From NCBI GenBank assembly GCA_020241865.1, contig GCA_020241865.1_4709.1: a stretch of DNA of 64,000 nt; one strand, 5' to 3'. Numbering within the stretch: position 1 is the first letter of the stretch; every line of letters begins with the position of its first letter. Positions 4,808-60,968 of this stretch are shown here, one piece after another. The notes beneath the pieces are model-generated. The model saw only the letters and a list, made by a program, of their open reading frames with translations. It was not told the DNA's origin and did no database searches. A program made the position numbers and the translations under genes. Source of the DNA: a phage.

Positions 4808-4842
4808 CCTTCTCCCCAACCCGATGAGGGAAGGGGAGAAGG
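4808..4842. terminator. GC-rich stem-loop CCTTCTCCCC/GGGGAGAAGG (family member) between convergent genes
   Basis: Perfect 10-bp inverted repeat around CCC-GATGA-GGG inner hairpin; A11 tract 4783-4793 just upstream. Confidence 0.6.
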
Positions 4843-13622: not shown

Positions 13623-13771
13623 TGAAAGTATCCTTTACAGAATTAACTTATATAAGTCGGTCGATAGACCATAGCGTACACGCGTGCATGCGCCACTATA
13701 GTATCAGTAAACACTTACCGTTATTGAGGTCGTGATACAACACTAAAAATGCCGCATAACTTTTCCCTACG

Positions 13772-14431: not shown

Positions 14432-16042
14432 ATGGACCCAAAACAGATAGCCATTAAGATTATTACGTTACTGTTTCGTAATGCACAATTGAACCATCCC
14501 GATCCCAGTACGATCGAACATGTTAAATCCGTCTTAGATAAAGTCGAACCCCCGAAAAACCATCTCGCTACAGACGTAGATAGAGAGGTTTTCAACAACC
14601 TGATGAATACCATTCATTGGATGTTGGAACAACCATTATCGGAACCTTTCGATAAACAACAGTTGTTACAAAGGATACGTTTGGATTGCCTTGAACAAAG
14701 CAATCTTTACGAGATTCTTGCCGACGGACTGTACGATATCGAAGACGACGCTCATATCAGTAAGGTCTGTTCACTCTATTACAACGAATTACGTAATCTG
14801 ATTACCCGTCGTCGTGTTTTCGAAACCTTTAGAAACACGTACATGGATATCAGTAACGGGCGACTTGGGGATAAAGAATTTTTCGATGCAATGGCGAATC
14901 TGAAATTATCGCTAGACAGTATCGAAATGGATACCGAAAATCCCGAAGAGATGTCGTGTATGATTGACGGCTTTATCGCTGACAGCGAAGACGATATCGA
15001 GAAAGTCGAACGTATGTTCGTCAAAGCGATGGAACGTAACAGTCCTGAAGGTGGATTTGTAACCGGCTGGCAAGGCTTTAATAAAATGTTGGGGTCGGTC
15101 GGTGTTTTACGTCGCGGTACCTTAGGACTGATTGGTGCAATGCAGCACCGGAACAAGTCAGGCGTGTTGTTAAAACTGTTCACACATCTGGCATTGTACA
15201 ACAAACCCCATTTCTTTTTCCCGGAGCGAGCAAAGAAAGCATTACTGATTCATTTGTCGACAGAAAACGAAGTGGAAGAAAACACGCTTCAGATATACAA
15301 GAACATGCGAGAACAGGAAACAGGCGAATATGTCGATATTCGTAAGATTGACCCTCGCGAGGCATCACGTTATGTGTTGAAGGTGTTCAACGATGCGGGT
15401 TTCTCTGTTTGTATGCGTCGTGTTGATGGGATGAGTTATAAACAACTCGCTAATCTCATCGACCATTTCGAACGCATGGGTTATGAAGTCATGGCGTTGT
15501 TCATTGACTATCTGAAAATGTTCTCATCGGAAGGGCTGGATAGAAATGGACCGACCGGCGCATGGCTCCAAGAACTCTTCAACAAAGTCCGTAACCTCTG
15601 CAGTGTTAAACGTATTTTAGGCATGACCGTACACCAGCTGTCATCCGATGCGAAGATGCGTGCACGTGATGGCAACGATGAAGAGTTTGTTGACCAAGTC
15701 GCAGGTTTAAGTTACTGGGATGGTTGTAAAGGGATTGACCGTGAGATTGACCTTGAAGTGATTGTTGATATCGTTAAGGAACCGGGCAAACGTCAAAGCT
15801 GGCAAGTCTTTGCATTAGGGAAAGACCGTCAACCGGATAACGGTTCAACGAAACCTGAAGACAAACACTTCGCAATGCCATTCCAAACCATCGGGATGCT
15901 TCCTGATGATTACGGTAAGAAAGCAGTGTATTGCCGCAAGGTTGGCGGACAACCTGTCTCCGAGGGAGGTAAAGGTCCGTGGAACAAGTTCGATGAAAAC
16001 GCAGCACCGAGTAATGAATTACAATTTGATTTAGAATTTTAA
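14432..16042 (+). CDS. DnaB-family helicase homolog candidate with atypical P-loop (537 aa)
   Basis: Track start 14348 would overlap the divergent gene; ATG 14432 has AAAGGA 8 nt upstream. Motifs by eye: GAMQHRNKSG (Walker A with Asn in place of the second Gly), KPHFFFPERAKKALLIHLS, LFIDYLKM (Walker B/H2-like), VHQLSSD (H3-like), in DnaB-like order and spacing. Confidence 0.75.
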   Translation: MDPKQIAIKIITLLFRNAQLNHPDPSTIEHVKSVLDKVEPPKNHLATDVDREVFNNLMNTIHWMLEQPLSEPFDKQQLLQRIRLDCLEQSNLYEILADGLYDIEDDAHISKVCSLYYNELRNLITRRRVFETFRNTYMDISNGRLGDKEFFDAMANLKLSLDSIEMDTENPEEMSCMIDGFIADSEDDIEKVERMFVKAMERNSPEGGFVTGWQGFNKMLGSVGVLRRGTLGLIGAMQHRNKSGVLLKLFTHLALYNKPHFFFPERAKKALLIHLSTENEVEENTLQIYKNMREQETGEYVDIRKIDPREASRYVLKVFNDAGFSVCMRRVDGMSYKQLANLIDHFERMGYEVMALFIDYLKMFSSEGLDRNGPTGAWLQELFNKVRNLCSVKRILGMTVHQLSSDAKMRARDGNDEEFVDQVAGLSYWDGCKGIDREIDLEVIVDIVKEPGKRQSWQVFALGKDRQPDNGSTKPEDKHFAMPFQTIGMLPDDYGKKAVYCRKVGGQPVSEGGKGPWNKFDENAAPSNELQFDLEF

Positions 16043-16450: not shown

Positions 16451-16852
16451 TTAAAACATACGGTCGTTTTTAGCACGGGCGTCCATTACCAGATCGTAGA
16501 TGCCTGCGGTTCGTAAGCACTCTTCGTAGTAACGATGTGTGCCTTCCTCAGCCATCCACGATAACCCTCGGCTATCCGCAACGATAACCAGTTTGTTATT
16601 GTTGAACGCACACACCACACGGTATGTCGCGTTGTTATTCGGATCGCGAGTGATGAGTTCATAGACGCCGTTAACAGGTTTACTGAATTCGCCGTTTAAC
16701 GGAACGAGTTCGGTAGTACCTTCAGCAAACGTTACGTTGATCGGTGATGGATCTTTAGCGATAACAGTATATTCCACATTGTGTTCTTTACTGGTCATAA
16801 TACCGAAGTAAGAACTCACAGGGGAACGCGGTACACTAAGAATATTAAACAT
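16451..16852 (-). CDS. hypothetical protein (133 aa)
   Basis: ORF track; ATG 16852 with AGAGGA upstream. Confidence 0.7.
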   Translation of the reverse strand: MFNILSVPRSPVSSYFGIMTSKEHNVEYTVIAKDPSPINVTFAEGTTELVPLNGEFSKPVNGVYELITRDPNNNATYRVVCAFNNNKLVIVADSRGLSWMAEEGTHRYYEECLRTAGIYDLVMDARAKNDRMF

Positions 16853-17492: not shown

Positions 17493-17567
17493 CGTTTTTA
17501 CCTTTCTATGTTAGGTGGATTGCGGATAGAAGAATCAATGCATAGACTGATTTAAGTTTGTTAAGGT

Positions 17568-18470
17568 TTACTTAGTCTTCGAGTTACAAGGACTGACATG
17601 TTGTTGTACTCGTTGAATCGTATCGTAGTACGGGTTAGATTGGTTGAACATGCTGTTGTGTGGATGATAGCCGTATGGCGCATTTTGCCTTGTTGATGAG
17701 AAACCTTGTTGAGAAGGACGATTTGAATTAACCGCGAGTACGTAGTAAACCAAATTTTGACGGTCGAACGTTCCTTCGTTTTTGAAGGTGTCGGCGTAGG
17801 TGTTTATCGCTGGAGCGAGTCTATCACCATCGGCGGTAATAATTGTACCGTCTGGGTAAACTTCACGAACGACGCACCATGTTCCGATAAGAACGTCTTT
17901 GGGCGGCGTATTGCCGTATCCGGTTGTAACGGTAAGGTAAGTATCGAACCCTTCAGAACAACAAGGATGACGATAGATAGGTCCTGTCATTTCCGTTCTA
18001 TCGGTATCGTCGCATTTCTCTATCGAGAGCGATGGTGTGTCGGTTTTGAAATTGTCAAATTCTTTCTTTAAGTCGATTACAGGTTCTTTCGTATAGTACT
18101 TCTTGATTGCTTTGACGTAAAGATCAGGAACGGTTGTCAGCATTCCGTTATACCTGATTCTCAGGTTTTCGAGTAATCCAAAGATACTCGCGCATGCTTG
18201 TTCGCGAGGTTTTGTAAGATAAGAGATCCCCCCAGGAACGCTGGGATCTTTGAGAAAGAAGATTGCGTTATTGTCGTTGTGCAGTGCGTTGAAGAAAACG
18301 ATTGATTCGATATATACGGAGCATAGGCTGTCGTTGGCGTCGTCAGATAACACCCAGATGCACTCATCGGTCGTCTTGTTTAAAAGTTCTGTTTTGTCCA
18401 CCAAACGTTGTTTCATTGCGAGGAAATGTGCCTGTTGTTCAGCGGATAATTCACGATAAATAGTGGTCAT
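17568..18470 (-). CDS. hypothetical protein, tandem paralog of 18556-19329 (about 300 aa)
   Basis: Track ORF 17568-18548 trimmed to ATG 18470 (AAGGAG 6 nt upstream); shares IY-HP-C...YL-T-G and REVYPDG-I motifs with neighbour. Confidence 0.8.
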   Translation of the reverse strand: MTTIYRELSAEQQAHFLAMKQRLVDKTELLNKTTDECIWVLSDDANDSLCSVYIESIVFFNALHNDNNAIFFLKDPSVPGGISYLTKPREQACASIFGLLENLRIRYNGMLTTVPDLYVKAIKKYYTKEPVIDLKKEFDNFKTDTPSLSIEKCDDTDRTEMTGPIYRHPCCSEGFDTYLTVTTGYGNTPPKDVLIGTWCVVREVYPDGTIITADGDRLAPAINTYADTFKNEGTFDRQNLVYYVLAVNSNRPSQQGFSSTRQNAPYGYHPHNSMFNQSNPYYDTIQRVQQHVSPCNSKTK

Positions 18471-18517
18471 GTTGAGCTCCTTGATTACGATAAGGATGAT
18501 TGCGGTTTTGTGATGCT

Positions 18518-18546
18518 GGTAGGGCCCTAAACAAAGGAGCCCTACC
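18518..18546 (-). terminator. stem-loop GGTAGGGC/GCCCTACC between tandem paralogs
   Basis: 8-bp inverted repeat with 13-nt loop in the spacer between stop 18556 and start 18470. Confidence 0.5.
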
Positions 18547-18555
18547 AATATTGGG

Positions 18556-19329
18556 TTACTCAGGATCGGCGTAGAAATGGTGAGGATAGCCGGAGTACGA
18601 TCCCGCGTTACCGGCTATGGATTCTTTCTGGGAATCGACGACGAGCGCATAGAACTGTCGGGAATTTGTTAGCGTTGAGAAATAAGCGGAAAGGACTTTT
18701 TCATTCAACGCATCGCAAGGTAGACAGGTGCGACCGCAAAACGTCACGATACGGCCGTCGGGATAGATCTCACGAATCATTCTCCACTCACCGATATCCA
18801 CTGGTGATGGCGCTGCTACACCACCTGTTATCGTTAAGTAACGATCGTACGTGGTATGGCATTCAGGATGAATATAGATCGGCTTGTTCGTTTCGACAGG
18901 TTCCGAAGTATCTCGACGACTAAGAAGCTCAACGACTTCAAGATAAATCGTTGGTAGATCGCGGAGAATACCGGTGCTACGACGTTTCTTTGTGATTCGC
19001 GGACGAATCTCGTTGAGAGCGTATTCGAGCTTACGTTCAGCTTCGTACGCATCGAGTTTTATCAGGCGACCCGGTTCATCGGAATGATCCTGAGTTACGT
19101 AAACGAAATACGCGTTGCCTTTTGCAGCGTGAAAGATTCGAGCGACCTTAAATGTTTCTACGGTACGATACCCAAGGCGCGATTGATTTTCCACAGGAGA
19201 AAATATCCAATGTCGTCCTTCGTCCGCCTCAACAATTTCGTTGAAACTATCCGTTTGTTCTGGGACCTGGTAGTCAGCCATTAATGTATCAAGAGCGTCG
19301 TCAGCCAGTTTGATGTAAATATCTGTCAT
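18556..19329 (-). CDS. hypothetical protein, tandem paralog of 17568-18470 (about 258 aa)
   Basis: Track ORF runs to 19542 through the intergenic stem-loop and promoter-like motif; ATG 19329 has GAGGA upstream and begins MTDIYIKL, matching MTTIYREL of the paralog. Confidence 0.8.
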   Translation of the reverse strand: MTDIYIKLADDALDTLMADYQVPEQTDSFNEIVEADEGRHWIFSPVENQSRLGYRTVETFKVARIFHAAKGNAYFVYVTQDHSDEPGRLIKLDAYEAERKLEYALNEIRPRITKKRRSTGILRDLPTIYLEVVELLSRRDTSEPVETNKPIYIHPECHTTYDRYLTITGGVAAPSPVDIGEWRMIREIYPDGRIVTFCGRTCLPCDALNEKVLSAYFSTLTNSRQFYALVVDSQKESIAGNAGSYSGYPHHFYADPE

Positions 19330-41687: not shown

Positions 41688-44600
41688 TTATCTTACGTTA
41701 TTGCTGTTCTGCTGTTCGCTGAACCAACCATACACCTTGAGATCGGTACCGTATTTCAACGCGATATACGCATTCAGCGCAGCACAGAACAAAGACGCGA
41801 ATGCCCATATCAGCGAAGGATCAACATCTTCCGTTACCATTGGGAGAGTATTATCCGGTTCCCATGATGGAGAACTGTCCATGAACGTTGCGTACCATCC
41901 CCGCCGTTGTTCTTCGGTGGTAAAGTCGCTATGGGGTTCCAATGCTTCTTTTGCCAGACGTCGATATTCGAACATATGCGTTGCTAAAGCCGATGAGTTA
42001 CCAGATTCGCCTTCATAGTTCGGATCCACCGCATAACAGAGTTCTGTGGAATCTAACAAAGCAACCGCCTGTGTGATGTTGTCGGCAGTGCCTGCACCAT
42101 AGAGCTCGATAGACCGCGAAAGCTTTTCACAGAACGCATTTAACGCGGAAGGATTGGACACCTGAAGGTCAAGGCCTAATGTCCACGGATAGTTACTGAA
42201 TACGCCCGTAAACCGCGGCATAACACCCAACAGATGTTGTCCGATTACAGCACGGTTATAAACAGCCCGGTTATAGACTTGAAACGCAGCCTCCAAAGCT
42301 TGGTTATAATGACGACGAAGTTCGTCACGCGAGTTGCGGAATCTGTTTGCCGCAAGACTTGTGGCTGCGACGCTACAAACATCGTAATTGGTGGACGAGA
42401 GCACAGTTTCGTTAAGATCGAACGATTCCTGTTTCAACGATCCGCTAACCGCTGCTGCTTCGCTGTTTGCTTTATCGACAACAGTACTCAAAGCGTTGAT
42501 GTAACGTTTAGCTCGGACTTCCAGCCATTGTGCGATACCGAGAATATCCACCGCGGCTTTAGCAAGATCGCGTGCATTCACGATTTCGTTCTTCAACGCC
42601 CCTAAACCTTTATTTTCAGGCGTTGAGGCTTGTTGACGAATCATACTGTTCAACATGGTAAGCAGATTATCCAACTCATGTCCGCTGACCTTGTTGCGCG
42701 CATCGGTAATCGGCCCTTGCAGGAATTTACGACAACCGTCATTATACCGAATCAGTTTATCCACGTCGATGGATTCGTTCGTGGTTTCCTTGAACTGATT
42801 CTTTAATTCTTCACGGTAGTCGTGTATCTCGCTTGTAAGATTATCAACGGTGATACCATTGTGACCAAGAAGAACTTTACTGAAGTTGCCCTTCTCGAAC
42901 GCCAGTGCGATGTCTTCACGAATCTTAGCCAGTTTATCCTGATCTAATTCACGACCGTTTGACAGTTCTTTCACTTCAGCACTGATTATTGCTGCAACCG
43001 TTCCAAGGTTATCGGTAACCCCTTTGAACGTGCTTGACCAAACACTTCCCGCTTCAGCGTATTTTGCGATGGTCTGGATACCGACGCTATGTAACGACGC
43101 TAAACGTTTCTTCGTACCTTCGGTAAGCAATGCATCTTTAGCTCGCGTAAGTTGACTGTTATTGGCTTCCGCTTGCTGGATGGCCGCTTTCGCATTCCCG
43201 TTACGCCAGCTCTTAACCAACCAATCGACCAAACGTTTCAGGATGTTGATGGTATATTCCATCGTACGTCGTAACGTTTCCCATGCGCTTTCAGCGGTAT
43301 AGATCCCACCAACAGTGTACCCTTCCATCTTCAGCGCTTTGGTATCGGTTTGACGTGCCAACCATTCTACCGTCGCAGAACAAACGTTTACGAACGCCTC
43401 CAGGTAGTTGTAATAGGCCTCTGTTGCGGAGGTTTCGTTGAGCTTCGAATGCAGATAAAACTGTTCGTATAGCTCGTCGTCATCACCGAAGGCGTCGTAG
43501 TTCCACAGTTCGGTATCGCAGCCGGTACCACAGAAGACATCCGCCGTTGTAAACTCCTTAAGTGCTTTCGTTGCGTCGTTGGTCAGGAATTTACCTGTCT
43601 CAAGTACGTCGTCAACATTAAGTCTCGGGAGTTCGTCAGTAATTGGGTTTTCCAGCATCAACGTATTGAAGAACACGCTGTACTTGTATCCAAGCCATTT
43701 TGGATAACTGTTTTCAGATATCGTAGACGCCGGTTTGATTTTCTTGGCTTCAGCCAACGTGTCTTCTGCAACCTGATATTGGTTTTCCCCAGCTTTGATA
43801 CGTCGTAATGCTTTTTCTTCCAACTGTTTGAGTTTGGTGTGCCGTGCTTGAGCTGGAGCCTCAACCAGTTTTTGTACCGACCGCATGGCGGAAATCGCTT
43901 CTTTCAATGTGGTGATCGGCATACGAACTTTACCGTCATCGAAACTCAGCGCGCGAGCAATACGTCGACTTACAACAGGTTCGGTATGGATGTTTCTTTC
44001 TACCCACGATTTGTTTGCGTAGGTTTGCGTGATTTGCTGCTGGATCTTTTCAAGATAGCCCCAGCTTTTGGATGCTTTGCCGTCCAAAAGCGGATTAGGT
44101 CCTTTCTTATCAAAAAGCTTTTTGATAGGATCAAAGAAACCTTCTTGCACGAGATCGATACGGGTGTAACCATCAGCTGCTTCGATTTCTTCTTGGGTTT
44201 TATCCCAGAAGTCGTCGCTCTTTGCAGCAACCGCTGTATCTTTAATGTCCAGGATGATCTGACCCACCGTTTGCGCAAACAGCAAGGCCGCACGTACCGA
44301 TTGTGCGAACATCCGCTGATATTTGATTCGAACGCATTGCATCTGGGTTAGCAGATTCAGTTGCGCGATCCCATCCAAGGTGCTATCTTGAGCAAGTCCT
44401 TCAGCCTTAGCGATAACCTGTTTTACACGTTCAGCGACATCAACGTATTGCTGGCATACATCCCGCAGAATACGTGCTGCGAAGACCCCGGTACCGATAT
44501 AGTTCAACAGGTCTTTTAATGACCATTCAGACGGACAATCGGCTGGTGCGGTAGGGAGTAAGCAACCATCACCGTCCATGAATCGCTCTAATGCACTAAT

Positions 44601-48573: not shown

Positions 48574-48605
48574 GTTAAATTCCTTTATAGTAAAAATAGA
48601 AGAGA

Positions 48606-49916
48606 TTAGGCGATAATGGAGTCAAGAGTCGCTGCGGTTTTGAACAGATCGCTGTTCATTGTAGAAGAAAGGACTTGCTGAATTTCTTCCTGTTTAACCG
48701 CTTTACGAACCCCAGGACGAAGGATAAGCGTAACCATCTGTGAAAAGGTACGATTATTGTTCATCGCACTCAGCGTTTCATCGATTGTTTTGATGGCATC
48801 CAGCGTCATGGAACGAACATCGCTTGGGATATCACGATCTTTCAAGCGTATAATTAAATCTTGTTTGATTTTACGGAATCGTTCCATGTCGTTATCGTAA
48901 ATGCTGTATGTCGGATCTAACCAAACAGAAAGCGCGGTTACAGCGACAACAACCAACACGCCGATAGCACCAACAGAAGCTAAACCTATCGCCATCATAG
49001 AAGCTATAGTAGCATCCATGATGAAGGAGAGCCAGAACATCGTTTTGGACTTCACGGAGTCTTTGCTATAAAGCCGATACATTTTAGCAAGCCCGCTAAC
49101 GAGATACTCCCCACCGCCATGACGCGTAGCGAACTGATCAGCCATGAATTCGGAAGCAACGTCGGTATATCGTCCAGCGTTGTTTACGTTTCTTAACTGC
49201 ATCGCTCTGTTAGACACGTAAACCGTGTACCAGACACTACCGTCGTCTGAATCACTGATTTTGTCTACGTCGACGTTGGTATCCAACGTTTTGTTTAACG
49301 CTTTCGCCAGTTCGATACGTTTTACCTTATCGGTTGTCCCCAACAGTTCACGCTGTACGGTCATGATTGAGGCTTCGACACGAACCGTTTCCGACAATGT
49401 TTCAAGGAAGGTAAATGCGTGCCCGATTTCATGCAGCATTATGGCTGCTTTTTCTTCCGGAAGAAAGGGTTCTGTCGCCGTTAGCAGTTCATACGTGATG
49501 GCAGAACGAATCTTCAATTCTTCAAAAATACCGTAAACACGACCTTTTTCTAAATCGACGTAACCGACAGGTGTATCTTTAATCTTCTTAAGGAGCGTAA
49601 CACCATCAGCACCGCGCATCCATAACCGATGATAGTCTGCCAGGATTGTGTTGTTTGTCGAAATATCCGGCGGGTACACGTAGGCATTCATCCGGCCCAT
49701 TTTCACGTCGACCGAGAATTCGATGTTCAACCCCGTATAGCGTTTAACCATCTCGGTTAAACGACCGTCCTTGAAAACGTTTAAAACCTCTTTTTTATCC
49801 AGTCCCTGTTTGCTTCTGAAGAACTCGGTCATTTCCTTGAACAAGGAACCATCTTGAAACTTGATGGCCTCCATCGTTAATTCGTCATGACCATACACGC
49901 GTTGTAGTAATGACAT
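48606..49916 (-). CDS. membrane-associated zinc metallopeptidase candidate (HEXXH motif, 436 aa)
   Basis: ORF track; motif AIMLHEIGHAF at residues about 159-168 (about 49419-49433); about 40-residue hydrophobic stretch FWLSFIMDATIASMMAIGLASVGAIGVLVVVAVTALSVWL at residues about 293-332. Confidence 0.8.
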   Translation of the reverse strand: MSLLQRVYGHDELTMEAIKFQDGSLFKEMTEFFRSKQGLDKKEVLNVFKDGRLTEMVKRYTGLNIEFSVDVKMGRMNAYVYPPDISTNNTILADYHRLWMRGADGVTLLKKIKDTPVGYVDLEKGRVYGIFEELKIRSAITYELLTATEPFLPEEKAAIMLHEIGHAFTFLETLSETVRVEASIMTVQRELLGTTDKVKRIELAKALNKTLDTNVDVDKISDSDDGSVWYTVYVSNRAMQLRNVNNAGRYTDVASEFMADQFATRHGGGEYLVSGLAKMYRLYSKDSVKSKTMFWLSFIMDATIASMMAIGLASVGAIGVLVVVAVTALSVWLDPTYSIYDNDMERFRKIKQDLIIRLKDRDIPSDVRSMTLDAIKTIDETLSAMNNNRTFSQMVTLILRPGVRKAVKQEEIQQVLSSTMNSDLFKTAATLDSIIA

Positions 49917-49927
49917 TGTACACTCTC

Positions 49928-49945
49928 TAAATTTACGTAAATTTA
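49928..49945. promoter_or_regulatory. 18-bp perfect palindrome TAAATTTACGTAAATTTA in divergent intergenic region
   Basis: Read from sequence; 12 nt upstream of minus gene start 49916, in the 221-bp spacer before plus gene start 50138. Confidence 0.5.
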
Positions 49946-50137
49946 AGGGTTCATGGATCGGCTGGCCGCACCAATCACAATGTGTCCGCTGCTATGCAAC
50001 GGCATTCATAGAAATACCTTTTGACGGTAACATCACCGTTCATACCCCAAGCAATAAGAGTGGTCGGTTAAAAACAACAGAACGTGAGGATGATATAGAA
50101 AATCACCTTTTAACACTTATTACGAGTTTATCAAGCC

Positions 50138-51889
50138 ATGAGCGAACAAGAACGAAAACCTAAGAAGAAACTGCTCGGTATTCAATGTCGACACATCAGC
50201 TATAACGAAGCGAACGATGGCAGCAAGAACGACCTCATGATCGCAAAAGAGATCATGTTCTTCGATGATAATACGCAAGCGACGAACCTTCGCTTCTTCG
50301 AGAATTACAAACGTCCGTTTTGGGTGACGGTAGAGAGTAAACGTAAGAACAAATATAAAAAGGAAAGCGAGAAGCTCTCGCATGTGCGTCGCTACGATGT
50401 CCGCCAAAGCGAACTGGTTGAAAAGATCAGCTCGGTACTTTATAAAAGACGTGCTGACGATAACACCCGTTTACAGCAGCTTGCACGGAGTCCATACCTC
50501 TATGGAACGGACGTTAGCGCCAGCTGTTATTTAAAAACCCAGTACAACACAAAATGGCCGGAATACGTCGATAAATTACCCGCTTCCATTGCCTGTTTCG
50601 ATATCGAAACCGACGTTGTCCACGGACACGGTAAGATCGTTTGTATGTCTATTACAATGGGATACAATGCGATACTTTGCTATACCAAGGACTTCGTTGG
50701 TCATATTCCGAATGCCATTGAGAAAACCCATGAGAAGATTCGATATTACCTGGCCGAACGTCTGAATACCAAAGAAGATCCCCACGCATTCGAAAAATAT
50801 CAGTACGATGTTCGAATCGTAGAAAGCCCGGCACAAGCGGTCATCCAATGCATGCAGAAGGTTCACGAATGGCAGCCGGATTATCTCCTTGGCTGGAATA
50901 TCGCGTTCGATATTCCGCGCATGCTCCAGGCACTGAACGAGGAAGGGTATCGTCCCGAGGATGTTTTCTCCGATCCCCGTATACCACCTAAATATCGTAT
51001 TGCTCGCTGGGTACCACCGAAGACCGACAAGGTATCTGCTTCAGGTCGTAAAACCAACCTTACCCTTGAGCAAACCTGGCCGATGTTTTATACGATGGCT
51101 ACGTATCAGGTTATGGATGCGATGTGTGGCTATAAGTTCGTTCGTTTAGGAAGACCGGATGAAGGACGCTATTCACTCGATGCGGTGTTAGAGCGAAATA
51201 AATGCCATACGAAATTAAAAGCTATTCCTGGTACAGAGGGGTTCACGGAGCTTGCCTGGCACGAAGAGATGCAAACGAACCATCAAATCGACTACGGCGT
51301 ATATAACCTTTGGGATAACCAGGGTATTGAGGCGTTGGACCAGAAAACAAAAGACTATTCGATGACCATCCCTATCCGTTTAGCGGCGTCGGATTTGAAA
51401 GATTTCAGTTCTAACCCTAAACGTATCTGCGATAAACTTTTCTTCGTTTATCTTAACCGTGGGGAAGTCATGGGATGTACCGCTGACGACATGACCCAGG
51501 AAGAAGATAAGTGGGTTATCTCACGAGCTGGACATATCGTCACATTACCATGCGATCTCATGGCTGACAACGGCATTCATCTCTTCTGGGATATGCCGAA
51601 CCTGAGAAGTTATATCCGTCTATTCGTTGCAGACCTTGACATTAGCAGTTCATACCCGAATGGGCAGATCCTGTTGAATCTATCCAGAGCGTGTGTTTTT
51701 CGCGAGCTCTCACGCATTGAGGGCGTCTCTGACTATCAATTCAGGAAGTTAGGTATCAACTTTATTACCGGAGGTAAAACGAACGCTGTAGACTTCTGTA
51801 GAATCGTTTATAAAGCACCATCGATGTTTGAACTTTTAGAACATTTCGATGCAACGCGTCCAAAAGAGGAAGCGCGGACCATCGAATGA
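50138..51889 (+). CDS. family-B DNA polymerase N-terminal fragment (3'-5' exonuclease domain plus motif A), 583 aa
   Basis: Motifs by eye in canonical order: Exo I CFDIETD (about residue 155), Exo II WNIAFDIP (about 258), Exo III Y-x3-D (YQVMD about 323 or YSLDAV about 345), motif-A-like DLDISSSYPNG (about 499); no motif B (K-x3-NS-x-YG) or motif C (YGDTDS) before stop. Confidence 0.8.
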   Translation: MSEQERKPKKKLLGIQCRHISYNEANDGSKNDLMIAKEIMFFDDNTQATNLRFFENYKRPFWVTVESKRKNKYKKESEKLSHVRRYDVRQSELVEKISSVLYKRRADDNTRLQQLARSPYLYGTDVSASCYLKTQYNTKWPEYVDKLPASIACFDIETDVVHGHGKIVCMSITMGYNAILCYTKDFVGHIPNAIEKTHEKIRYYLAERLNTKEDPHAFEKYQYDVRIVESPAQAVIQCMQKVHEWQPDYLLGWNIAFDIPRMLQALNEEGYRPEDVFSDPRIPPKYRIARWVPPKTDKVSASGRKTNLTLEQTWPMFYTMATYQVMDAMCGYKFVRLGRPDEGRYSLDAVLERNKCHTKLKAIPGTEGFTELAWHEEMQTNHQIDYGVYNLWDNQGIEALDQKTKDYSMTIPIRLAASDLKDFSSNPKRICDKLFFVYLNRGEVMGCTADDMTQEEDKWVISRAGHIVTLPCDLMADNGIHLFWDMPNLRSYIRLFVADLDISSSYPNGQILLNLSRACVFRELSRIEGVSDYQFRKLGINFITGGKTNAVDFCRIVYKAPSMFELLEHFDATRPKEEARTIE

Positions 51890-51936
51890 TTCAAGTAGGT
51901 TGATCCTCGCTTAACAAAAAAGAAAACACATGCGAA

Positions 51937-51969
51937 GCCCCTCCCCCTGGCGGAAGCCGGAGGGAGGGG
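51937..51969. terminator. GC-rich stem-loop CCCCTCCC...GGGAGGGG between convergent genes
   Basis: Imperfect inverted repeat between stop 51889 (plus) and stop 51976 (minus). Confidence 0.55.
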
Positions 51970-51975
51970 TGAGGT

Positions 51976-52461
51976 TTATGCGCGTTCGTTACCAACCGTT
52001 ACTTTGTAGTCAGCGTCGGTTAAGAAAATAGACAGGAATCCATGTTCTTTGCAAATCTTACTAAGGATGTCAGCAATGATTTCGTTGATCATCGGCTTGT
52101 TTGCAAGGGCATAGATGTACCCGGGTGTAAAAGAAAGTGCGTGATTGATCATAGGCTCATGAGAAGCCAAGATAAGGATCACGTGATGCTTCCCATCGTC
52201 GGTAACGACCGCTTGCGTAGACACGAAGAAATCAGTGAAGCAGCAGCGATCACAGGCTTTAGGTATATACAAGTCACCCAGAGCTTCGTCACGTGCTTTT
52301 ACGTGTGTTTCAGGGGTGATGCTGCTAAGTTGATCTTCAGCGAGATCCAAGACATCCTCAATCGTTTTAAGAATAGCGTTGCGGAAATCCTCACGGTAGA
52401 ATGGGATGATATCACGATCGTTCATGTAATCGCCGGATTCGATAGTAAAGTTGATGTTCAT
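51976..52461 (-). CDS. small hypothetical protein (161 aa), small-gene island
   Basis: ORF track; ATG 52461 with AGGAG upstream. Confidence 0.75.
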   Translation of the reverse strand: MNINFTIESGDYMNDRDIIPFYREDFRNAILKTIEDVLDLAEDQLSSITPETHVKARDEALGDLYIPKACDRCCFTDFFVSTQAVVTDDGKHHVILILASHEPMINHALSFTPGYIYALANKPMINEIIADILSKICKEHGFLSIFLTDADYKVTVGNERA

Positions 52462-53044: not shown

Positions 53045-53443
53045 TTATGCTTCGCAATCAGCTGAAGGCGTCGCGCCTTTCTTACCAGCGATACGCCAAA
53101 TCCGACACGCTGGGTAATGGTTAACCTCTAGAGAGCAAGGAATGTTATATTTCTCTTCCAGCGCATAAAGACATTTCGTTAGCTGCTCCAGCGCGTTCTC
53201 GTCGTGTCGTAACGCGTGGTGGCCTAATCGATGTTGGTCGTTCTTTATATACGCCTCGAAGAGAACATGTTGGCGATGTACGCTGACGTTTACAGCCTCG
53301 AGTATAGCTTGGTCGAGCATACGACTAAAGCACATCAACGAGTCAGATACGTTTTCTCGCTTAACCAGATCGATCATGGCGGGAATATACGAATGGTCGA
53401 TGTTATCGATGACCGCTTTAGCGACGGAATCAGCAACGTTCAT
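53045..53443 (-). CDS. small hypothetical protein (132 aa), tandem paralog of 53481-53876
   Basis: ORF track; shared motifs KAVxDNIDH, MIDxxK, EEKYNIP-SLEVN. Confidence 0.8.
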   Translation of the reverse strand: MNVADSVAKAVIDNIDHSYIPAMIDLVKRENVSDSLMCFSRMLDQAILEAVNVSVHRQHVLFEAYIKNDQHRLGHHALRHDENALEQLTKCLYALEEKYNIPCSLEVNHYPACRIWRIAGKKGATPSADCEA

Positions 53444-53480
53444 CTTTTTTAATCCCTAGTTTGTTATTGATCACGTATAT

Positions 53481-53876
53481 TTACTCTTTGACGTCAGTTG
53501 TCGTTTCGACATGCTTCTCACTACTGACGTACCAGAGCAGGTACGCTGGGAAAAGATTGACCTCTAAGCTAAATGGGATATTGTATTTCTCTTCCATTTT
53601 ACAGAGATGTTCTTTAAGTAAATTTCTCGCGTCTCTGTCACCACGAACAGAGTGCCAGTCTAGTTCTTTGTTCTCCTTTACCAGGACCTCTACGATGATA
53701 CGTTGCTCGTGAACCTCGGTTTTCACAGTGAAAAGTAAATCGCTGCTATCCAAACGGGTAAAACGAATGTATGAACCAGGTGTTTTTTCTTGTTTAATAA
53801 TATCGATCATGGTAGAAATGCGCGGATGATCGATGTTGTCGTTAACAGCTTTAACGATGGATTCTACAATGCTCAT
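53481..53876 (-). CDS. small hypothetical protein (131 aa), tandem paralog of 53045-53443
   Basis: ORF track; ATG 53876 with AAGGA upstream. Confidence 0.8.
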   Translation of the reverse strand: MSIVESIVKAVNDNIDHPRISTMIDIIKQEKTPGSYIRFTRLDSSDLLFTVKTEVHEQRIIVEVLVKENKELDWHSVRGDRDARNLLKEHLCKMEEKYNIPFSLEVNLFPAYLLWYVSSEKHVETTTDVKE

Positions 53877-53908
53877 TTTTTATCCTTAATGTTATCGATT
53901 TGGAAATA

Positions 53909-54676
53909 TTACTTATTTTTGCTTTCTTTATAGACAGTTGTTACCCACGATGGGAAAGCCGGATGGAAACAGAGCGTGAACGTAACTGTCGTATCGTATT
54001 TAAACGCACAGTTCACTAACCGGGTATCTAACGTTTTCCTTAATCCGTCATCATCGTTATCGATGATGGTCATATCTCTTAATATCCCAAGCACGTTAAC
54101 GCCATCGGGTGTCTGGGTTACGACAAGTCGTCGTAATGGCCCGCATGTATAGTCACGTACAAATCCTTTCTTCGGGTCCGATACCCTGTTTAACGCATCG
54201 TGATTTTTGATGAATTCATCGGCGATACAATAGGTTTGCTCCCTTGCTTTATCGGGATCGTATTCTGCTAATAGTTCCTTCGTGTCGAATGTTATCGCGT
54301 TATTAGCATTCGATTCAGAAGGGAAACATAAAACTAAACGAACAGGGTATTCATATTGATCTGTTCTCGTTTCGAAAGCATTAGCTAAACACGGCTTGTA
54401 TGCCTTTGCGTCGACATTGTCCAAACACGGATGCAATAATGCGTGAATAACGGCACCATCGTCAGTTAAACCGAATTCCAGAAATTGTGTTTCATCGACA
54501 TCCGTGACGGTTTTCTGAAGATACGCTTTACCGTTAACGATATCGGTATCCCACATATCGTCGTTTAACGATTCTTCAAACTTATCGAATATATGGTTTA
54601 CGAAATTGATGAGTTCATCAATACGACACTGTTGGTTGAATTCGATTAATCGTTGAACTTTATCTCTGATAGACAT
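53909..54676 (-). CDS. hypothetical protein (255 aa), small-gene island
   Basis: ORF track; ATG 54676 with AAGGAG upstream. Confidence 0.8.
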   Translation of the reverse strand: MSIRDKVQRLIEFNQQCRIDELINFVNHIFDKFEESLNDDMWDTDIVNGKAYLQKTVTDVDETQFLEFGLTDDGAVIHALLHPCLDNVDAKAYKPCLANAFETRTDQYEYPVRLVLCFPSESNANNAITFDTKELLAEYDPDKAREQTYCIADEFIKNHDALNRVSDPKKGFVRDYTCGPLRRLVVTQTPDGVNVLGILRDMTIIDNDDDGLRKTLDTRLVNCAFKYDTTVTFTLCFHPAFPSWVTTVYKESKNK

Positions 54677-54678
54677 GA

Positions 54679-55143
54679 TTACTCCTTAGTTCCTTCTTCG
54701 TTGGACGTATATTCCACATAGTGGAATTCACGGCCGTCGATAAACTTGAGTGCTACTGTAATAGGGAAATCACACGGCATAGCGGATTTCGTAAATGCGT
54801 TATCAGCAACATCAGATAACCGACGTATGGTATTCTCCCCTTTTGCTATGAATGGGAATTTAATGTTAATAAGGATACGGTGTTTGTAAATAGTAAAGAC
54901 GACAGTGCTGTCGAAATGTACCCCAGTTAAAGTCATTGTTGGGATACGTTTTACAACGGAGAAATGTGTCCCGTCAATATCGCTACTTCCCACTGACCAT
55001 TCATCGGAATTGCGTAGACTTTTCTTGAGGATATCAACGCTTTGCGTGACCACCTCAGCAACTTGTACGACGTACGTGTCTTTATGCATGTCGAAAAGTT
55101 CGTTGACGTTAGATTTGAATGAATAAACCGTTGCCATTATCAT
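54679..55143 (-). CDS. small hypothetical protein (154 aa), small-gene island
   Basis: ORF track; ATG 55143 overlaps upstream stop (ATGA); alternative ATG 55137 has better SD spacing. Confidence 0.75.
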   Translation of the reverse strand: MIMATVYSFKSNVNELFDMHKDTYVVQVAEVVTQSVDILKKSLRNSDEWSVGSSDIDGTHFSVVKRIPTMTLTGVHFDSTVVFTIYKHRILINIKFPFIAKGENTIRRLSDVADNAFTKSAMPCDFPITVALKFIDGREFHYVEYTSNEEGTKE

Positions 55144-60095: not shown

Positions 60096-60968
60096 TTAAA
60101 CCCGGGTCAGGTCACCGTGACATGAAACGAACTCTGATAACGCTCGGGTTGCTTCTTTGGATTCTTCAGCCATCGGGAAGTTTGCGGTAATAAGTTCTCG
60201 TAAGACAGGGACGAGTTCATTATCTTCGAGATCGGAAGCTAAGGCGAATGCAATCAGTTCTTGGGTGTATGCATACGGTTGCTGACGTAATGCAGTAAGC
60301 TGATCCCGACACTGCGACATTAGCAGGTCCAGTGGAACCGCTATCGTACCCCCTTCATCAATATACTGGCTGAACACTGGTGGGAACGCATCGCTGATGA
60401 CACGAATACGTCGACGAATATGATCCGGAATCTGGACGTTTTCTTCATCGACGACGTTTTCGCTATCTTTCTCCAGCTTCTTGGTCAGTACCTCTTGAAT
60501 GCGTGGAAGTAAGCTTGAATGCACGAAACCGATTAATGGGGTTACGTTAACAGCATCGACACCGTAAATATAATGCGCGCATTCCGCTAGCGCTTCAGCT
60601 GCGGTGTAGTCTTCATCTTCAACGATAGCGAGTAGAAAAGCGGTATCGTCGTGTGTTTCCAGGTCTAATAACGTAGACGCTAGCGCATGAAGATATTTCA
60701 GGCTATCCAGAGTTAGCTGCCCTTCGTTAATTCGGATCCCGAAGGCAAGCAATTGTTGTTTATAAAGTTCGATACATCCGTTTGTTAAAATGATGTCTAA
60801 TTCGTTTAAATCGTATTGTTCCCCAGCACCTGACAACATCGTACTGCAGAACGTTTCCAGTTGTTCACATTTAAAATCTTGGTATAAACGATGTATGCAG
60901 TGCTGTAACAGCGTACGCCTTGTTTCAGGGATCTTACCTTCTAACAAAGCCAAGACGGAATCAATCAT
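60096..60968 (-). CDS. hypothetical protein (about 290 aa)
   Basis: Track start 60974 is GTG; ATG 60968 has GGAG 5 nt upstream. Confidence 0.8.
   Translation of the reverse strand: MIDSVLALLEGKIPETRRTLLQHCIHRLYQDFKCEQLETFCSTMLSGAGEQYDLNELDIILTNGCIELYKQQLLAFGIRINEGQLTLDSLKYLHALASTLLDLETHDDTAFLLAIVEDEDYTAAEALAECAHYIYGVDAVNVTPLIGFVHSSLLPRIQEVLTKKLEKDSENVVDEENVQIPDHIRRRIRVISDAFPPVFSQYIDEGGTIAVPLDLLMSQCRDQLTALRQQPYAYTQELIAFALASDLEDNELVPVLRELITANFPMAEESKEATRALSEFVSCHGDLTRV

Follow-up and report, generated by a model that had tools for sequence, protein, structure and literature searches.

An 18-bp conserved palindrome between the divergent head-protein and DNA polymerase genes of a Goslar-like jumbo phage is probably a small control element for gp067

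What purpose might an 18-bp perfect palindrome serve in the 221-bp spacer (49917-50137) that separates two divergent open reading frames of a phage, one on the minus strand (48606-49916) and one on the plus strand (50138-51889)? The question is raised by a 64,000-nucleotide stretch of phage DNA, hereafter the window, in which a first-pass annotation had picked out the palindrome TAAATTTACGTAAATTTA and proposed it as a bidirectional promoter or as the binding site of a dimeric regulator. The description itself proved accurate: the sequence at 49928-49945 is equal to its own reverse complement, it sits in the divergent spacer, and the half-site AAATTTAC reads outward on both sides, rightward at 49929-49936 and leftward at 49944-49937. 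The palindrome is made up of two 9-bp half-sites TAAATTTAC, with a dyad that includes the central ACGT, and it can also be parsed as TAAATTTA-CG-TAAATTTA, an 8-bp palindrome directly repeated with a 10-bp period. In our view, it is a real and conserved cis-element of an ordinary kind, and probably a small control element for gp067, the gene to its left. The following features define the locus:

48606-49916, minus strand: gp067 homologue of 436 aa, a virion/head protein, first gene of a leftward gp067-gp064 block
49923-49927, minus strand: Shine-Dalgarno-like GAGAG of gp067, 6 nt before the ATG and abutting the palindrome
49928-49945, no strand: 18-bp perfect palindrome TAAATTTACGTAAATTTA, single copy in the window and in Goslar
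50138-51889, plus strand: intron-less family-B DNA polymerase, homologue of Goslar gp068 (phrog_3011, E = 8e-178)

Over 48600-51900, the window shares 93.9% identity with Escherichia phage vB_EcoM_Goslar, a jumbo phage that forms a nucleus and belongs to the Chimalliviridae, and it is collinear with 32-93 kb of that genome, bar a few insertions and deletions. The spacer locus corresponds to 79,468-79,690 in Goslar (NC_048170), with an offset of 29,552 between Goslar and window coordinates. Two segments of the window, 17552-19324 (about 1.8 kb) and 53054-54720 (about 1.7 kb), are not common to Goslar; the first contains two ORFs, and an early-promoter-like site (19400) and a hairpin with a 9-bp stem are found just to its right. 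The Goslar polymerase gene is split by a 1.78-kb intron with an HNH/NUMOD1 endonuclease gene (NC_048170 81183-82966), and its counterpart in the window is without this intron (junction 51630/51653). Full-length polymerase matches in the metagenome relatives L151-L153 suggest intron-less alleles, and matches that stop after about residue 499-503 in L154-L157 suggest a Goslar-like interruption.

The left-hand gene had been labelled a metallopeptidase. The sole basis of this label, a HEIGH (HExxH) motif, is present and is invariant in distant homologues of 24-32% identity; a peptidase domain finds no match in Pfam. PHROGs lists the family (phrog_2767) under 'unknown function', and the public annotations of gp067 mostly read 'virion structural' or 'structural head protein', a few of them naming a BepA-like protease. 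Downstream of gp067 come gp066 and gp065, which bind the capsid vertex (bioRxiv 10.64898/2026.04.21.720040), and the leftward gp067 unit is hence regarded as a late head-protein operon.

By length, the palindrome ranks second among the perfect palindromes of the window, behind a 20-mer in coding DNA (44108-44127). Dinucleotide shuffles predict 0.29 palindromes of at least 18 bp per 64-kb window; for non-coding DNA, the expectation falls to 0.02 in the window (4.5 kb) and 0.06 in Goslar (15 kb), and an 18-bp palindrome is unlikely to occur by chance in the window's non-coding DNA. It is also solitary. The search for further copies suggested by the first-pass annotation yielded none in the window at up to 3 mismatches; the 237-kb Goslar genome contains no real relatives of the palindrome (up to 3-4 mismatches) and no pairs of half-sites elsewhere, and TAAATTTA is confined, within non-coding DNA, to 49928-49945. 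The 16-mer core was found in 56 IMG/VR contigs, of which 53 are unrelated, a number that is about the chance level by a rough estimate. Because only the remaining 3 are Goslar-like, the core is not a mobile or widespread element.

For an assessment of conservation, we assembled 11 genomes: the window, Goslar, two from IMG/VR and seven from metagenomes, all ten further genomes being 94-97% identical to the window across the 3-kb locus. The first-pass annotation had made its proposal depend on conservation in related genomes, and the palindrome is indeed kept, with 0 of 18 positions substituted. Variable positions amount to 34-40% of the third-codon positions in the two flanking genes and to 12% of the spacer (27/221). 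The third-codon rate predicts about 6.5 substitutions in the palindrome, and the probability of finding none is about 3e-4 at this rate and about 0.10 at the spacer's own rate. In one relative (L155), a single A has been inserted at the left edge of the palindrome, which abolishes the outermost T-A pair. The spacer contains four runs that are invariant in the 11 genomes (49919-49949, 49955-49978, 49990-50024 and 50062-50086); those other than the first (24, 35 and 25 nt) are non-palindromic. The 91 nt of the gp067-proximal half contain 8 variable sites, and the 113 nt on the polymerase side contain 19. Judged from these alignments, the palindrome is under purifying selection as part of a generally constrained region, and not above the neighbouring spacer. 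None of the genomes falls below 94% identity to the window over the 3-kb locus, which leaves no variation that could reveal symmetry-preserving changes; a search for intermediate relatives in IMG/VR and metagenomes returned only loci of at least 94% identity or homologues with at most 32% amino-acid identity. The following elements of the spacer are needed for the argument:

49919-49949, no strand: invariant block A, 31 nt, containing the complement of the ribosome-binding site, the palindrome and AGGG; no substitution in 11 genomes
49929-49944, no strand: 16-bp core AAATTTACGTAAATTT, identical in 11/11 Goslar-like genomes
49953-50024, plus strand: 23-aa ORF MDRLAAPITMCPLLCNGIHRNTF, preceded at 3 nt from its ATG by AAGGG, which overlaps the palindrome; variable sites on both sides
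49990-50024, no strand: invariant block B, 35 nt, with the inverted TATG pair CTATGCAACGGCATTCATAG; 11 genomes
49993-49996, plus strand: TATG, candidate start of the polymerase transcript, which would have a 142-nt leader
50007-50010, minus strand: TATG in the context TTTCTATGAATGCC, candidate late start for gp067, with a 91-nt leader that would include the palindrome
50116-50123, plus strand: CTTATTAC, ending 14 nt before the polymerase ATG; PWM score -19.7 bits

Block A is bordered by variable sites at 49917/49918, in the gap between ribosome-binding site and ATG, and at 49950/52/54. The free variation at 49917/49918 supports the gp067 ATG and its GAGAG ribosome-binding site as real. This site directly adjoins the palindrome, which ends 11 nt from the ATG, and GAGAG/GAGAGT sequences are enriched 5-8.6-fold (GAGAG itself 5-fold) in the 60-nt stretches that precede the start codons of Goslar. 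The 23-aa ORF is probably not a gene: its ATG has become ACG in L155, and only 1 of its 24 third positions varies, a near-invariance that points to constraint at the nucleotide level, unlike the usual coding pattern.

From where is gp067 transcribed? A bidirectional terminator lies between the 3' end of the polymerase gene and the next minus-strand gene, so that gp067 has to have a promoter of its own within the spacer. The late promoters of phiKZ consist of TATG, with the G as +1 and each of the four bases needed (PMC7598289, PMC12809450); phiKZ leaders are 31-40 nt long, and leaderless mRNAs are absent (PMC8244752). The regions upstream of Goslar genes are 2-fold enriched in TATG, most strongly at 30-40 nt from the ATG, and in KTN4, a phiKZ-type phage, the G of an upstream TATG is separated from the start codon by 34 nt. 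The spacer has exactly one TATG per strand, together forming an inverted pair that spans 49993-50010 and lies 48-62 nt from the palindrome in an invariant block of its own. The minus-strand TATGAA (50010-50005) is central in block B, which would reach from about -17 to +18, and 7 of 39 independent chimallivirus lineages have TATGA[AG] 15-65 nt upstream of the gp067 homologue, where 1.4 would be expected. We consider this TATGAA the best candidate for the gp067 promoter. Transcription would then begin at 50007, and the 91-nt leader would be unusually long for chimalliviruses, with the palindrome at +63 to +80. The TATG pair likely represents back-to-back divergent start sites whose transcripts would overlap by 12 nt.

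Of the explanations that we have weighed, we tentatively put first a dyad-symmetric site at which a dimeric protein would bind and so control the late gp067 head-protein operon. We infer for it a start site, protein binding and a regulatory outcome: a dimeric phage protein would bind the two 9-bp half-sites TAAATTTAC between the TATG start (50010-50007) and the GAGAG ribosome-binding site, and the bound protein could gate the expression of gp067 and of the head genes downstream. The dimeric regulator put forward by the first-pass annotation thus remains the preferred candidate, given a perfect dyad, no substituted base among the 11 genomes and an RNA that hardly folds; a regulon, which such a protein might be expected to have, is not seen, because the genome contains no second copy and no further set of half-sites. 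If the start at 50007 is right, an operator at +63 to +80 stands in an unusual place, one that is equally compatible with a role at the RNA level.

Such a role, in which the A/U-rich 18-mer within the 91-nt leader tunes translation of gp067 or the stability of its mRNA, is possible, if on the unlikely side. The element could act as a translational enhancer, a ribosome standby site, a weak hairpin or a protein-binding site, and the DNA symmetry would be incidental or derived from the hairpin. Its position immediately 5' of the ribosome-binding site fits, as does the conservation of the gp067-proximal half of the spacer throughout, which is what a conserved leader would give; palindromes between TATG and ribosome-binding site occur in other lineages too. 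RNAalifold retains the hairpin, and pairing is kept by each of the three one-sided changes found elsewhere in the leader, although compensatory pairs are not found. The energies, however, are small: the palindrome RNA forms a 7-bp, all-A/U stem with an ACGU loop at -0.2 kcal/mol alone and -1.8 kcal/mol with flanks, the single-stranded DNA reaches -2.1 kcal/mol, and neither the gp067 leader (z = -1.3) nor the second leader (z = -0.2) folds significantly better than shuffled sequences. A stable RNA or DNA hairpin, and with it an RNA role based on stability, is therefore unlikely. Furthermore, A/U-richness alone would permit A-to-U swaps, of which there are none among the 11 genomes, and hairpins do not require a self-complementary loop, so that the symmetry through the centre exceeds what a hairpin needs. 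No Rfam family was matched at the locus, and the leader itself depends on the start site that we propose at 50007.

It is likewise rather improbable that the stretch is conserved and its symmetry functionless, be it a chance A/T-rich arrangement or a by-product of the 10-bp direct repeat of TAAATTTA; the block would then be under constraint for some different reason, for instance as a leader or as promoter-distal sequence. The case for this explanation is that the conservation of the palindrome is no higher than that of the neighbouring, non-palindromic invariant blocks, and that it is a singleton whose core occurs in unrelated contigs at about the chance level. In addition, coding DNA carries long palindromes (the 20-mer of the window, 18- and 20-mers in Goslar), and these therefore arise without obvious function. 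The longest palindrome of the window, the 20-bp TATCAAAAAGCTTTTTGATA (44108-44127), ends exactly at the right junction of a 0.82-kb stretch inside the gp064 homologue (43305-44127) that is missing from Goslar. The low expectations for non-coding DNA speak against a functionless symmetry, as does the absence of substitutions where the third-codon rate would predict several, and palindromes are found at the same relative position in other lineages.

The recurrence of palindromes was examined in two ways. Within 60 nt of Goslar start codons there are six perfect palindromes of at least 12 bp versus 1.7 expected (p about 0.005), belonging to the major head protein, gp055, gp058, gp067, the nuclear-shell protein and gp223. 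Upstream of the gp067 homologues in 39 non-redundant chimallivirus lineages there are four such palindromes versus 0.68 expected, and they differ by lineage, e.g., GTATAACGTTATAC, TATTTGCAAATA and ACAAACGTTTGT. Both tests count the case that prompted them, and by our own estimate they are only marginally significant without it. Further perfect palindromes, 12-16 bp long and 7-27 nt ahead of the start codons of late genes, are located at 13646-13657 in the window and at 65117-65132, 60909-60920 and 189480-189491 in Goslar; the genes behind them are those of the major head protein, gp058, gp055 and gp223, and the palindrome of the head-protein gene sits between TATG and ribosome-binding site. 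A 12-bp palindrome, AATGACGTCATT, is present twice in Goslar (142859-142870 and 172929-172940), each time beside an early promoter and once in the leader of the nuclear-shell gene. That lineage-specific palindromes recur between TATG and ribosome-binding site of head genes (Goslar gp041, gp058 and gp067, and gp067 homologues elsewhere) as determinants downstream of the start that the non-virion RNA polymerase requires besides the four-base TATG, or as sites for lineage-specific regulators of late genes inside the phage nucleus, is a speculation to which we assign little likelihood.

The other proposal of the first-pass annotation, a bidirectional promoter core in which the halves or the central TACGTA direct a phage RNA polymerase outward, appears distinctly doubtful. 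It would give leaders of about 20 nt for gp067 and about 16 nt for the plus-strand ORF at 49953, with transcription proceeding on to the polymerase. The palindrome is A/T-rich and lies between divergent genes, TACG is a single base off TATG on both strands at the dyad, the flanks GAGAG and AAGGG resemble ribosome-binding sites and are each followed by ATG, and the A-rich sequence followed by TAC loosely recalls the phiKZ middle-promoter description (PMC8244752). The individual promoter classes, however, speak against it. Early promoters of phiKZ-like phages have a strongly conserved A/T-rich element near -10 (PMC7598289; PMC8244752; PMC12809450), and middle promoters a weak A-rich/TACT motif near -22 to -24 (PMC8244752, PMC7598289).

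An early motif of the Goslar clade, nnTTTCACGGCTA[T/C]ATTACCTAGGTGA, was found de novo from over-represented non-coding words. The resulting TATATTAC family (TTTCACGGCTA[T/C]ATTACCT) forms a conserved element of 25-40 nt and is evidently the promoter-like motif to which the first-pass annotation had likened the palindrome halves. It has 12 copies in Goslar and three in the window (11227, 19400 and 57421), 15 of 15 on the minus strand. The Goslar sites (NC_048170, minus strand) are at 2567, 15067, 43266, 49732, 86705, 113797, 142800, 160791, 166069, 172978, 201944 and 226695, and one of them precedes the nuclear-shell (chimallin) gene; a description of the motif TTTCACGGCTA[T/C]ATTACCTAGGTGA for Goslar was not found in the literature searched. 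A PWM of 40 columns, built from eight Goslar sites, scores family members at 27-57 bits and every placement in 49880-50175 at -14 bits or less, with -16.3 and -17.3 bits for the placements over the palindrome. The supposed resemblance of the halves to TATATTAC has therefore to be given up: AAATTTAC matches it at 5 of 8 positions, with mismatches where all 12 members have T, T/C and A. The core TA[T/C]ATTAC with its flanking CGnC...CT is not present in the palindrome, and the T-rich/TTTCAC block that belongs about 10-20 nt upstream of the core is absent from both strands around 49928-49945. The first-pass annotation had also noted a related sequence before the polymerase ATG; CTTATTAC is there, its score does not make it a relative of the early motif, and position 50117 varies, so that Goslar and L151 read CCTATTAC.

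Nor does the palindrome correspond to a late or middle promoter. The late motif, with its fully required TATG, is absent, both strands reading TACG, and the upstream regions of Goslar genes show no enrichment of TACG(T). A phiKZ-type late start would be expected some 30-50 nt ahead of the start codon; the TATG closest to the gp067 start codon is 91 nt away, and transcription from the centre of the palindrome would leave a 20-nt leader. The TACT of middle promoters is replaced by TACG, and 22 nt further downstream the start would coincide with the gp067 ATG (minus strand) or precede the polymerase by 180 nt (plus strand); because phiKZ is devoid of leaderless mRNAs, this spacing is unfit for a phiKZ-type middle promoter. 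Sites resembling sigma-70 promoters (-35/-10 hexamers with 16-18-nt spacing) number zero in 49600-50450, versus 1.5 expected, and the small plus-strand ORF that one arm would serve lacks its ATG in L155. Compared with the Goslar dyad motif CTGTAAAnnTTTAC(T), the palindrome agrees at only 10 of the 14 specified positions, the GTAAA arm being absent; the pentamers TTTAC/GTAAA are common to both, but are everted in the palindrome, with zero spacer. A promoter reading of the palindrome is hence not supported.

Weaker candidates can be dealt with briefly: an intrinsic terminator is rejected on account of the all-A/T stem without a tail (such terminators have a G+C-rich stem and then a T run, or, in the clade, a hairpin plus TTATGCYGT), a replication origin for want of any feature in the cumulative GC- or AT-skew at the locus, and a common upstream motif ACGTA for an enrichment of just 1.5-fold.

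Several other cis-elements came to light in the course of this work. Goslar has 22 copies of a conserved terminator hairpin (CCCTCCTCCAACCCGTAAGGGAAGGAGGAGGG and variants), and the window has copies at 4827, 16087, 19451, 30683, 33389, 41664, 53022, 57977 and 51935-51980; in every case TTATGC[C/T]GT comes next. TATG occurs right behind the terminator stem, 33-51 nt before the next start codon, which suggests combined terminator/late-promoter modules. The dyad GTAAA-NN-TTTAC(T), which contains the pentamers of the palindrome inverted with a 2-bp spacer, is the third most recurrent upstream motif of Goslar and a plausible candidate for a middle promoter or an operator. Exact copies of GTAAAnnTTTAC are located in Goslar (NC_048170) at 15706, 81200, 173087, 176758 and 188961, with fewer than one expected by a rough estimate; these five copies are effectively all non-coding, one of them overlapping the last 4 nt of gp243. 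Relaxed copies of GTAAA-NN-TTTAC(T) are found in Goslar at 16758, 26414, 45744 and 197141, and none in the window.

The literature searched mentions no gene regulators of nucleus-forming jumbo phages beyond the two phage RNA polymerases, and the specification of late promoters by a four-base TATG is a puzzle on which an accessory signal would bear. The conserved dyad before the head-protein operon is, in our view, a candidate that is cheap to test, either for the site of a missing regulator or for an accessory promoter or leader signal. As a by-product, our analysis provides a first cis-element map for Goslar-type phages, an E. coli model of phage-nucleus biology, which covers the early-promoter consensus, the terminator-plus-TATG modules, the GTAAAnnTTTAC motif and the inverted TATG pair.

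When the palindrome is set beside known systems, the chimallivirus early promoters, which are served by the virion RNA polymerase, share with it a TTAC ending and A/T-richness; the palindrome misses their profile by more than 40 bits, it has no TTTCAC block, and its two-way symmetry contrasts with the one-way orientation of the family members. Like the phiKZ-type late promoters, which the non-virion RNA polymerase uses, it lies upstream of a late virion gene and has a centre, TACGTA, that resembles TATG on both strands, but the essential T at the third base is a C in the palindrome. A/U-rich translational enhancers are found 5' of weak ribosome-binding sites, e.g., in the T7 gene 10 leader, and to our knowledge they need neither symmetry nor an exact sequence. 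The palindrome resembles them in that it is A/U-rich and immediately precedes the weak GAGAG site of a late gene with high expression, and differs in that every base is fixed in the 11 genomes. The operators of dimeric phage or bacterial regulators (repressors and activators) of the helix-turn-helix type, for which no counterpart in nucleus-forming jumbo phages was found in the literature searched, are unlike it in that here a single genomic site is present, probably downstream of the transcription start and not over the promoter. They share with it a perfect dyad of about 18 bp, 9-bp half-sites about one helical turn apart, a position beside the start of an operon, and conservation among close relatives.
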